A stretch of 61,183 nt of DNA, counting the filler, from Dugesia japonica (lineage: Eukaryota), in the NCBI GenBank assembly GCA_001938525.1. It is 6 parts of 6 records of this genome, joined end to end, with 100 filler letters (N's around TTAATTAATTAA, not from the genome) between each part and the next. Parts side by side here need not be neighbours in the genome. Positions count along the whole stretch, not along the records: positions 33,466 to 42,918 come from MQRL01624423.1; 5 more parts are not named here. One strand, given 5' to 3'. The notes under the pieces were generated by a model that was given only the letters and a program-made list of their open reading frames with translations, was not told where the DNA came from and did no database searches. This document shows, piece after piece, positions 33,366-41,190 of this stretch. A program made the translations under genes and the position numbers. The number at the start of each line of letters is the position of its first letter. Within the stretch, counting starts at the first letter, position 1.

Positions 33366-33784
33366 NNNNNNNNNNNNNNNNNNNNNNNNNNNNNNNNNNN
33401 NNNNNNNNNTTAATTAATTAANNNNNNNNNNNNNNNNNNNNNNNNNNNNNNNNNNNNNNNNNNNNTTTTCAACTTCTTTACTTATTTCAGAAGTTTTAAG
33501 TATAGAATTTTCTACATTAGATTTAAGTGTATTAATATTATGAAAATGTTCATCAAATGTTTTCTTATTTATATCATCATGTAATTTGTAAAGTGTAACA
33601 TGTAACATGTTAACTTCTTTATTTAATTTATTAGACAAATCTTCTTTATTTATTTTTTTAAAAATATTTAATAAATCACTTCTTTTAAATGGAAAGACTT
33701 CTAATCNNNNNNTTTCAATTTCACTAGCAATATCATAATATTTTGTTAGTGAACATTTATTTGTTAGATTTTTAATTTTATCAT

Positions 33785-34102
33785 TTATCTTTTATTATTT
33801 AAACGTTCAGCTTTATATTGTAAATAAACTTTGTTGATTTCAGTTTTATCAATCTTTAAAAGTTTTATAAAAATTAATTCATGTGATTGTATTTTATCTT
33901 CTAATTCTTTAATATATTTTAAATTAACAGCATCATTTAAATCTAAAAGATCTTCTATTATTTTTAAACATGTTATCATATCACCAGTTTCATTTACAAA
34001 TTTATTTTCATTATTTGCATCTGATATTCTAAGTTTAGCATCTACAGTTTTTATTAATTGTGCACTATTTATTCCATATATACATTCTCCAAATTTATTC
34101 AT
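33785..34102 (-). CDS. Polinton hypothetical protein (105 aa)
   Basis: ATG overlaps the protease stop, consistent with viral-style compact packing. No recognised motif. Confidence 0.55.
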   Translation of the reverse strand: MNKFGECIYGINSAQLIKTVDAKLRISDANNENKFVNETGDMITCLKIIEDLLDLNDAVNLKYIKELEDKIQSHELIFIKLLKIDKTEINKVYLQYKAERLNNKR

Positions 34103-34511
34103 TATCTATTTCTTTATATAAATTTTTCATTTCTAAAATTATATTATCAAAGTCAACATGTTTAATTTTAGTTAAAAAATAAATACATAATACACCACAA
34201 ATTTTAGTTCCAAAATGTTGAACTTGAATTTCATTATATTTAGTAACATACTTTTCAATTTTTTCTAAAGGTTTTAAACCAAAAGAGTCAAAATAATAAC
34301 CTTTTGTGTAACATGTCCAATGTATTCCATTTTGATTTGAATTTTGATAATTAAAAAAATAATTAGTTTTATTATTTAAAATTGGCATCTCATTTTTCAT
34401 ATAAATTTCTAAAGGTAAATCTAAAAAGTCTGCAATTGAATATAAATCAAAATTTGTAGTTGTATTAATTCCAAATGTTTTTAAGAAATCAATTAAATTA
34501 TAATCTGACAT
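34095..34511 (-). CDS. Adenain-like (adenovirus-type) cysteine maturation protease
   Basis: Catalytic motifs 'NQNGIHWTC' (His), 'YYFDSFG' (Asp) and 'QVQHFGTKICGVLCIYFL' (oxyanion Gln, Cys). Intact 138-aa ORF. Confidence 0.9.
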   Translation of the reverse strand: MSDYNLIDFLKTFGINTTTNFDLYSIADFLDLPLEIYMKNEMPILNNKTNYFFNYQNSNQNGIHWTCYTKGYYFDSFGLKPLEKIEKYVTKYNEIQVQHFGTKICGVLCIYFLTKIKHVDFDNIILEMKNLYKEIDNE

Positions 34512-34540
34512 GGCTATTTATTAAATGTAAAATGTAAAAT

Positions 34541-35326
34541 CTAAAGTCTATACTTTCGTAAATGAACTAAAATTGAAATTGTTTCTTGGTTAAAATCTTT
34601 TGTGTTAAAGTTTTCATCTACAACATTAAATTTTAATCTTGAAATATAATTTGTATTAATTTTAGAATAAATTGTTGTTGTTGGTTTTTCATTAATTTTA
34701 AAACCAAATGGAACTGAATTNNNNNNNNNNNNNNNNNNNNNNNNNNNNNNNNNNNNNNNNNNNNNNNNNNNNNNNNNNNNNNNNNNNNNNNNNNNNNNNN
34801 NNNNNNNNNNNNNNNNNNNNNNNNNNNNNNNNNNNNNNNNNNNNNNNNNNNNNNNNNNNNNNNNTCCTACTTTATAAGTATTTGGTTTAAAACCTAAAAC
34901 TCCATAGAAAAAACATTTATCATCAAAAGTTAATATTATATCTTCTTTTATTTCAGGTCCAGAGGTTAGTGTAGCGATTTGTCCGGAGGCTAGTTTCACA
35001 ATTTCAAATTTATCGTTAGGTTTATCACTATCTTTAGGAGGTATTATTAAATTACATTTTGCTGTTGATGTATCTGGTATAATTTCTATTCCATGTTTAG
35101 TTTTTAATTTTTCTGATATTTCTTTTGTTTCATATGCACCAGGTTCAATTTTATATTCTTTATTATTTACTGTATATTTATTGTTTAAAGTGGTAACATT
35201 AAAAATAATATTATAAACACTAAAACATAATAATCCAAGTTCATATTCTGAATCTAGTTCTATAGGAAATTTTAAATCTATTACTAAATCTTGTTCTTTT
35301 CCAACTACTAAGAATTGATGTGACAT
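34541..35326 (-). CDS. Penton-like minor capsid protein (single jelly roll) of the Polinton
   Basis: 'PIELDSEYELGL', 'IEPGAYE', 'VPFGFKINEKP...IY', and C-terminal 'LKFNVVDEN...DFNQETISILVHLRK' match polinton minor capsid proteins. Internal N gap. Confidence 0.75.
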   Translation of the reverse strand: MSHQFLVVGKEQDLVIDLKFPIELDSEYELGLLCFSVYNIIFNVTTLNNKYTVNNKEYKIEPGAYETKEISEKLKTKHGIEIIPDTSTAKCNLIIPPKDSDKPNDKFEIVKLASGQIATLTSGPEIKEDIILTFDDKCFFYGVLGFKPNTYKVGXXXXXXXXXXXXXXXXXXXXXXXXXXXXXXXXXXXXXXXXXXXXXXXXNSVPFGFKINEKPTTTIYSKINTNYISRLKFNVVDENFNTKDFNQETISILVHLRKYRL

Positions 35327-39900: not shown

Positions 39901-40827
39901 ATCCATCATATTTTAATTCTGATAAATGTGTAATATAATTACTTGCACATGTTGGATTATCATTAAAATATTTATGTGCTAATATTGAATATAAGAAACA
40001 TTTATCATCTTTATTTTCTATATTAATAACTCCAGGTTTTCTAAATGGTAATTTACAATATGTCGCACCTGCTAACGATTGATATTTACTTAAATCTAAT
40101 TTATAATCTATAATGTGCGACATACTCCATCCTGAACCTTCTCTATCTTCATCTTCAATATATCTTTCTAATTCTTGAAACATTTNNNNNNNNNNNNNNN
40201 NNNNNNNNNNNNNNNNNNNNNNNNNNNNNNNNNNNTTTATTTATAGAATATGATGTAAAATCTCTTTCAACATGTTCATAATTTATTTCTTTTTCATATC
40301 TACATTTAACAGACATGCTTATAACAATTTCTTTCCATAATTAAAATATTTAGTTACAATTTCTTCTACTTCTTTTTGAAATATATTAATATTAGTAACT
40401 GCTTCATATATTTCATCTACATTTAATTTCATTTCCACTTTACTGTCTTTGAAATATTTAATTTCATAATCTGTGTATTCTCTTAATAAATCTCTAATTT
40501 CTAGTTTGTAATTAATTACTTCTCCACCTGATTGATTAAGTACCATTTTTTTATGTTTGTCACAATTATAATGTGTTCTTGCGTGATTTTGCCTTTGAAA
40601 TCTTTTATTGCATATTTCACAAAATAATTGTACAATTTCTGGATTTCCAATTCTTGTTGCATTTAAATGTTCTTGTAATCCATTTTCTGAAGTGATTTTT
40701 TACGGCATGTTACACATTCAAATTCTTCATTTACTCTGTAACAAATTCTAGATCTAACATGTCATTTTAACCCAGCTACATTTTTAAACACTTTACCACA
40801 ATTATCACAACTTATAATAGTACTCAT
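36978..40827 (-). CDS. polB: Protein-primed family B DNA polymerase precursor; C-terminal 749 aa intact (36978-39227), N-terminal half disrupted
   Basis: Exo II FHNASGYDNHL, FLDS, FPYEY, Exo III YMKLDV, Pol A YIDENSLY, Pol B KLMLNAFYGK, Pol C YSDTDC, and KGV. Upstream frames give C2H2-type fingers, GSGW, an OTU-like 'INIENKDDKCFLYSILA' segment, Exo I IGDF*, and an EndoVII-like CxxC...DHNHFTGEFRG..CNNCN. Confidence 0.93.
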
Positions 40828-40959
40828 TTTCTATAGGAATAATTTAATCACTCACATTAAAAATGGGGTGCCATAAAAAAAATGTTATTCCTCTTTTTTA
40901 TTTTATATTTTTTATATAATTCCTCTTAAATGCGTGAATATATTTATCACACAAAAAAA

Positions 40960-41125
40960 ATATATGTCAAATGTTACATGTTACACTAAAATAGTTAGTT
41001 CGTATATGTCACATAAATATATTTCACTAAATAAGTTAGTTCGTATATGTCACATAAATATATTTCACTAAAATATGTCTCATTAAAAATATTACATTAA
41101 AAATATTACATTAAAAATATATGGT
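40960..41125. repeat. Tandem subterminal repeats of the Polinton (~42-bp unit x2 and 15-bp unit x3)
   Basis: CACTAAA(A)TA(A)GTTAGTTCGTATATGTCACATAAATATATTT x2 and CATTAAAAATATTA x3, upstream of the polB start. Confidence 0.65.
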
Positions 41126-41190
41126 ACGGTAGTATAAAATACCCGGTTAAAAAGTGATTATTACATTACTAATAATAATAATAAAAATAA

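Follow-up and report, generated by a model that had tools for sequence, protein, structure and literature searches.

What kind of genetic element occupies positions 33466 to about 41170 of a 61,183-nucleotide stretch of DNA from Dugesia japonica (GenBank assembly GCA_001938525.1; the whole stretch is hereafter referred to as the window), in which a series of virus-like genes is closely packed on one strand? Analysis of the locus indicates that it is very probably the polymerase-end half of a chromosomal copy of a Polinton/Maverick (polintovirus), inactivated as read and belonging to a many-copy family of what is likely a dugesiid planarian, with the genes encoding the capsid protein, the packaging ATPase, and the integrase probably located beyond the end of the scaffold. 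Among the features that mark a Polinton, a family B DNA polymerase (PolB), an adenovirus-type cysteine protease, a single jelly-roll penton, and dispersed copies (insertion sites unseen) were all found, and none was tested and failed. The element is a member of the known Polinton kind, be it new or already catalogued.

The part of the window that carries the element, 33466-42918, is a short scaffold of a draft assembly, and a linker of the form N44-TTAATTAATTAA-N44, present five times, divides the window into six segments. One such linker (33366-33465) truncates the element and, since it is artificial, the sequence to the left of 33466 is no true neighbor. Gaps of N at 33707, 34721, 39245, and 40186 further divide the element into five contig pieces. 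Read along the minus strand, the order is an (AAT)n run near 41170, tandem repeats, polB, a gene of pX type, a gene resembling family F6, the penton gene, the protease gene, an open reading frame (ORF) of 105 amino acids, and a last ORF that the end of the scaffold truncates, with all ORFs co-oriented, intronless, and closely packed. Such an array is far beyond chance: the region holds 12 stop-free stretches of at least 100 amino acids (both strands, N removed), against 0.31 on average and never more than 2 over 200 base shuffles. An earlier sequence-only reading had described seven or more such ORFs in this order as a Polinton/adintovirus-type module containing polB, penton, and adenain genes, with tandem repeats upstream of polB and a break at ~33465. 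Each of these points was recovered, the three assignments by Pfam, profile, and fold comparison, the module by gene identities and order, and the break as the artificial linker.

Foremost among these genes is that encoding a protein-primed PolB (~1,280 codons, 36978-40827, minus strand), recognized by Pfam matches to DNA_pol_B_2 (PF03175, E = 8.3e-17), Endonuclease_7 (3.5e-5), and zf-met (3.3e-6), by the presence of motifs A, B, and C, and by the tiling of a profile built from 38 full-length relatives. Specifically, four window pieces cover this profile in order (positions 197-349, 369-435, 453-508, and 500-1239, the third being weak at E = 0.07), and the small ORFs upstream are therefore parts of the polB gene. 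From the ATG at 40827, the gene comprises C2H2 fingers, a putative terminal-protein and vOTU region, an exonuclease, an endonuclease-VII insertion, and the palm. The candidate vOTU piece (39725-40183) matches the profile of relatives at E = 9.5e-35, and on visual inspection a Cys and a His occur where they would be expected; a vOTU domain with catalytic Cys and His preceding the exonuclease is the TP-vOTU architecture described by Krupovic et al. (2024, PMC11071308). Three C2H2-type zinc fingers open the gene (40322-40827), the first and third detected by Pfam (0.0077 and 3.3e-6) and the second by eye, a feature absent from the sequence-only reading. PolB gave no PDB sequence match at E ≤ 0.1, and PHROGs and NCBIfam scans contributed nothing beyond endonuclease VII.

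The 3' two thirds of polB is open and the 5' third is broken. In the latter, the frame changes twice, near 40700 and 40330, and in-frame stop codons occur at four places (40762-40764, 39722-39724, 39710-39712, and 39494-39496), such that no complete polymerase could be made from the sequence as read. A further break, at 39245-39294, is only apparent and stems from the assembly; the gap at 39245 has the same 60 bases on either side. An alternative genetic code was rejected as the source of the in-frame stops by argument rather than computation, as all three stop codons occur and terminate genes and, further, aligned contigs differ from the window copy at the stop at 39494-39496.

A word-index search identified 20 polymerase relatives, at 25-33% identity, among 5,241 candidates, and an alignment of polymerase relatives led to 33 loci in viral contigs; a scan of viral contigs with the single PolB protein found no close relative. 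Consistent with the divergence claimed by the sequence-only reading, the closest polymerase in the searched collections, among which is no labelled planarian Polinton, is 35% identical. In a FastTree phylogeny of 46 rows, the window PolB forms a long branch with no close sister and groups, with a support of 98, with another long branch, a GenBank protein (P0020) recorded as DNA polymerase B of "Ficedula parva densovirus", which belongs to the polymerase class of the window enzyme and resembles it in an unusual motif-A context. This join is probably long-branch attraction: in a BLAST search with P0020 relatives match at 1e-66 to 1e-22 and the window at 4e-32, near the bottom of the list, while the rare residues common to the two polymerases number 13, versus 9 shared with another long branch. 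A link between the window and bidnavirus-like PolB is accordingly doubtful.

The penton gene (34541-35326, minus strand) is an open frame of 261 amino acids, of which a gap of 144 N leaves 48 codons unseen, and it matches a profile of 16 ORFs from related Polinton loci at E = 2.3e-23. Its relatives at E ≤ 0.001 number 273 among 1.84 billion representatives, with a best identity of 35%; alignment searches found no close relative in viral contigs and at least six distant loci in metagenome contigs. When the protein was folded with a 15-row alignment and X in place of the gap (predicted local distance difference test, pLDDT, 57), the top VIA-align match of the model was the mavirus penton (Z 8.6, rmsd 2.4, 94 residues aligned), which was also the top match of Foldseek against the PDB (E = 3.7e-3). 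Similarly, BFVD gave 25 matches at E ≤ 0.001 to minor capsid and penton proteins, the best being a klosneuvirus minor capsid protein (7.8e-7). The jelly-roll fold of this ORF, set beforehand as a test by the sequence-only reading, was thus obtained and, as modelled, the ORF is a penton, a single jelly-roll minor capsid protein. The adjacent open frame (34095-34511, minus strand) encodes an adenain-type maturation protease, in which the His-Asp-Gln-Cys site (H63, D74, Q97, C104) is kept in all 13 aligned sequences. The alignment profile matches S273R of African swine fever virus (1.2e-10) and adenain (5.2e-8), and the top five Foldseek matches of the model (pLDDT 88) are all adenovirus protease, at E = 4e-3 to 2e-2 and none below 0.001. 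A single-protein scan of viral contigs with the protease found no close relative.

What might the unseen half contain? The 33 viral-contig loci that carry the window's polymerase type were cut at 10 kb flanks, so that counts from them are lower bounds. At least 24 contain an rve integrase, at least 24 an A32-type ATPase, at least 14 the penton family, at least 12 the protease, and at least 8 one capsid family, with five of eight capsid ORFs matching Pfam DJR-like_dom. Among the eight loci whose penton directly matches that of the window, all have the ATPase, at least six the integrase, and at least five the capsid gene. Within the window, profiles of the major capsid protein (8 relatives) and of the A32/FtsK-type ATPase (25 relatives) matched nothing among 1,216 pieces, and a profile of the rve integrase (24 relatives) matched nothing in the element, its only matches being on other scaffolds (1903-2196 and weaker ones) amid retrotransposon remnants. 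These negatives are limited to the half that is seen, because the scaffold ends inside an ORF. That ORF (33466-33791, minus strand, 108 amino acids seen) has no in-frame start codon near its 5' end, was assigned to no family by Pfam, PHROGs, or NCBIfam at the cut-offs applied, and matches none of the capsid, ATPase, and integrase profiles. As it runs into the linker, the missing genes plausibly lie beyond the scaffold end, as had been proposed. No PLA2 domain was found in the seen part of the element; in three related loci (L004, L006, L009) PLA2 is a separate gene, and such a gene may here lie beyond the cut.

Only one end of the element falls within the window, and 33466-41170 contains no long inverted repeat. 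A putative end, 5'-AGT on the minus strand (41123-41170), abuts the (AAT)n run and is proposed from sequence only, by the terminal-motif rule; Polintons are flanked by a target-site duplication of 6 bp. Between this end and polB lie subterminal tandem repeats (40984-41120) with units of 41 bp (2.2 copies, 40984-41073) and 14 bp (4.6 copies, 41055-41120). The depth of aligned contigs over these repeats is ~1% of that in the genes, indicating that this part is common to few copies.

Between polB and the penton gene stand two genes that, contrary to the earlier claim that the other ORFs carry few lesions, are each split over two frames. The first (36390-36927, minus strand, break near 36660) is of the pX/cupiennin core protein type, an amphipathic helix being followed by GxGLYL repeats. 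Its amphipathic and GxG ORFs are one gene, as they match consecutive stretches of one profile (29-60 at a weak E of 0.32, and 74-105 at 4e-6). The second (35372-36321, minus strand), whose frames meet in a low-complexity run at 35500-35610, is weakly suggested to be a conserved Polinton gene of family F6. Its C-terminal piece ranks first of the 1,216 window pieces against the family's C-terminal motif (a weak E of 0.074), a profile of the F6 N-terminus matches nothing in the window, and a gene with the C-terminal motif lies directly upstream of the penton in three related loci (L034, L007, L010). GasderminX of Starrett et al. is a possible candidate label for this gene, and the best Atlas score for 35536-36321 (0.86) is a lead only. 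Beyond the protease, the unassigned 105-amino-acid ORF (33785-34102, minus strand) resembles by eye a worn fiber-type repeat, with likeness, again by eye, to L009:12573-14003 and L018:4999-5469; a fiber-repeat profile built from two sequences gave no match, and Atlas gave no usable match for 33788-34102.

A recurring box, ATGATAAA(T), was observed on the minus strand ~35 bases upstream of the start codons of the pX-type (36962) and penton (35363) genes, seven times upstream of the F6-like gene (36344-36393), and at the head of the last ORF (33784), and is not found upstream of the protease or the 105-amino-acid ORF. A tandem-repeat scan records a 7-bp array made of the ATGATAAAT box at 36336-36396 (minus strand). 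The ATGATAAA(T) box occurs in 459 of 6,943 60-base stretches of the element and, in related loci, GATAA is not enriched upstream of these genes (none of 14 pentons and none of 8 capsids; background 14%). Picked out post hoc, the box is a lead only, possibly to a family-specific late promoter. An ATAAAC box was found upstream of none of the element's genes.

How does this element compare with systems already described? Four Polintons of 11.6-15.9 kb are catalogued from Schmidtea mediterranea (Polinton-1_SM, Polinton-2_SM, Polinton1_SM, Polinton2_SM), two of them with capsid, penton, ATPase, and protease (Krupovic et al., 2014, PMC4028283 Table S1), and an expansion of Mavericks as a repeat class has been reported from Dugesia (preprint 10.64898/2025.12.11.693146). 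In light of these entries, the suggestion that the locus represents a possibly undescribed lineage was not upheld. The S. mediterranea elements likely come from the same host family and share the penton, protease, and polymerase module, the 7.7 kb of the window being about half of their length; the window host is not identical, and its copy is broken and cut off. The link to the host is provided by an orthologue of JUNLI-1 on another scaffold (56184-57365), which is identical to the S. mediterranea protein at 342 of 384 residues (89%), all other matches scoring below 60 bits and the named ones being flatworms; the host is thus likely a dugesiid planarian that differs, or has diverged, from the S. 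mediterranea entry. A search of the literature on planarian Polinton gene content found nothing beyond a presence table, with subscription journals and Repbase outside the search.

Similarly, the gene set by which adintoviruses are defined (Starrett et al., 2021, PMC8502044) overlaps with that of the window in adenain, penton, an amphipathic protein of cupiennin/pX type, a PolB with a putative OTU-type region at its N-terminus, a candidate gene of GasderminX type, and a compact array. Alpha adintoviruses are described there as having a PolB of PF03175 class with similarity of ~1e-60 to bidnavirus PolB, and a PLA2X gene in the virion module of the Mayetiola class (PMC8502044). The window polymerase, which matches both PF03175 and the "densovirus"-labelled PolB, may belong to the Alpha class; a beta-type label finds no support. 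In contrast, the window's pX-type gene is without a PLA2 domain, the hexon, FtsK ATPase, and integrase are unseen, and three C2H2 fingers lead its polB. The text and the searched part of the supplement of that paper contained no flatworm names. Further related systems are seven Polinton-like IMG/VR loci (L004, L006, L009, L017, L018, L029, L030) and a metagenome locus (L034), with 26-32% identity to the window in the polymerase, 21-26% in the penton, and 30-34% in the protease; L034, as in the window, has an F6-like gene directly before the penton, but the gene order in these loci differs from the window's polB, pX, F6-like, penton, and protease on one strand. An HNH/endonuclease-VII-type insertion is likewise found in the pPolB2 of nematode and oomycete Polintons (Jeong et al., bioRxiv 10.1101/2023.08.22.554363) and, since many relatives have the same insertion (PF02945 in 9 of 20), it is not special to this element.

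Evidence for additional copies comes from contigs aligned to 33466-41150 at 85% likeness; their summed depth is not read here as an estimate of copy number. Twelve runs from five studies contain some of the polB stretch, none of them more than 27% of its words, and no RNA run was listed among them. In one DNA run (X1), 33,365 contigs fall on the element and cover all 30 bins, with 2,931 at 99% identity or more, 7,447 at 95-99%, 14,828 at 90-95%, and 8,159 below 90%, while a run from a different study (X2) gave 33,896 contigs and the same profile. About two thirds of these contigs are less than 95% alike to the window copy, mostly 85-95%, and the element is a member of a large, diverged repeat family with 5-15% divergence around the window copy. 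A run only guessed to be RNA (X8) gave 5,007 contigs on the element; in an RNA run of which about a quarter was read (X14), 166 of 167 reads on the element fit only partly, and no transcript of the window copy was shown. Two lesions, the stop at 39494-39496 and the frame change near 36660, belong to the window copy itself, since most or all of the contigs aligned there read differently. Under an equal-rate model, four stops in ~2,205 codons correspond to ~1% neutral change (0.3-2.5%) past inactivation. The earlier description of few lesions and an open polymerase thus holds for the 3' two thirds of polB, the penton, and the protease, and not for the 5' third of polB, with its four stops and two frame changes. 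Similarly, that of a fairly recent insertion is weakly favored by the ~1% estimate and disfavored by a copy that is already dead as read within a family diverged by 5-15%.

All four stops lie within the 5' third of polB, a stretch of 437 codons (chance ~0.0015), and none in the other 1,768, suggesting that the scaffold may be a mosaic of at least two copies, an older one supplying this third and a younger one the rest, the few frame changes of the younger being partly due to homopolymer or low-complexity errors. Such a mosaic, to which we assign a real though less than even probability, would bear on the state of the element and not on its identity; it is favored by the assembly of five contig pieces across four N gaps and by the location of three frame changes in T runs of 6-8 bases, yet the two pieces that meet at the 39245 gap have an identical overlap of 60 bases, the stops fall in two different contig pieces, and sites at which nearly all aligned contigs differ from the window occur throughout the element, beyond the 5' third. 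The joint absence of capsid, ATPase, and integrase genes from the window raises a different question, namely whether the family is a shortened, helper-dependent derivative that has lost one or more of these genes and is moved by complete Polintons. Some contigs do join distant parts of the element (e.g., 33499 to 40364 in X1 and X2, with sides of only 22-30 letters), and two of the four catalogued S. mediterranea Polintons are without a protease and one has a blank capsid cell (PMC4028283). Nevertheless, such a derivative is improbable: an artificial linker cuts the scaffold off within an open frame, the penton and protease are open with conserved residues kept, which fits selection for particle genes, and an ATPase accompanies this penton in eight of eight loci.

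Least credible of all, to the point of being nearly negligible, is an origin from a free virus, or from contaminating prey or symbiont DNA, co-assembled with the animal. No host gene lies on the element scaffold, the closest relative is 35% identical, and adintovirus contigs from contaminants are reported by Starrett et al. (PMC8502044), but the nonsense and frame lesions, the diverged contigs, which number in the tens of thousands and come from runs that carry a single organism label and span at least three studies, a GC content (0.245) like that of the other five scaffolds (0.253-0.277), and the adjoining (AAT)n repeat of a type that recurs across the window all argue for an endogenous element, as the sequence-only reading had it. 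Several observations weigh against a planarian Polinton nonetheless. For the window family, the sequence shows no capsid, ATPase, or integrase gene, no far end, no inverted repeats, and no target-site duplication; two ORFs have no assignment and one has a weak one; the penton model is of low overall confidence, and Foldseek against the PDB gave it no match below E = 0.001; the aligned pieces are short (those listed are 110-340 letters), none spans the element, and the gene order is seen in one copy only. In addition, the S. mediterranea Polintons were likened to the element by gene table and size, and the JUNLI-1 orthologue is not on the element scaffold, so that the host link rests on one gene and the premise of one organism per assembly.

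Beyond the genes, their order, their lesions, and the many diverged relatives, all of which are observed, the life cycle of an intact member is modelled on the Polinton family. Such a member would excise or be copied as linear DNA and would replicate by protein priming, with the terminal protein freed from PolB by the vOTU domain, and an rve integrase would put the DNA back into the genome. An icosahedral particle would be built from a double-jelly-roll capsid protein, with the penton at its corners, and packaged by an A32-type ATPase; adenain would then mature the particle by cutting Gly-x-Gly sites of the pX-type protein, the amphipathic helix of which may help membrane entry. The window copy is incapable of such a cycle alone, because its polB is interrupted before the catalytic core.

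Whether the Polintons of animals form particles has long been an open question. As it stands, the locus is of descriptive use and little weight, being a single damaged fragment from a class of repeats that is on record for planarians and from a family poorly represented in protein and viral collections; the weight would be greater if natural complete copies exist and make particles. It is conceivable, though unlikely, that the family is a planarian-specific, deep-branching polintovirus lineage of very many copies, with young members whose open penton and protease genes stand under the shared ATGATAAAT box. If true, planarians would be a tractable animal in which to seek natural Polinton particles, in a stem-cell system with documented PIWI control of Polintons. 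Virion formation by Polintons has been argued from gene content only (PMC4028283), and SMEDWI-2 is reported to silence planarian Polintons, with the silencing lifted in differentiation (Li et al., 2021, PMC8532177).

As the remainder of the window shows, the genome is repeat-rich and fragmented, at odds with the compact genome of the earlier description. Decayed pieces of Gypsy-type retrotransposons and two Tc5-type transposase remnants are found on other scaffolds (1903-5409, 28534-29241, 43685-43897, 52786-53265), as are pieces of host genes, namely a homeodomain exon (16456-16815), which we take to be Rx-like, and TRAP-delta (55265-55597). On the element scaffold, beyond the (AAT)n run, an island of 47-50% GC (41737-42175) carries a minus-strand ORF of 139 amino acids with a coiled-coil-like end, for which no family and no match in the 33 loci was found, and is probably a different repeat. 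Finally, nested tandem repeats of 27, 56, and 41/137 bp at 9083-12740 are arranged as large inverted arms (9806-10050 versus 11560-11804, 94%) and are possibly the end of another mobile element.

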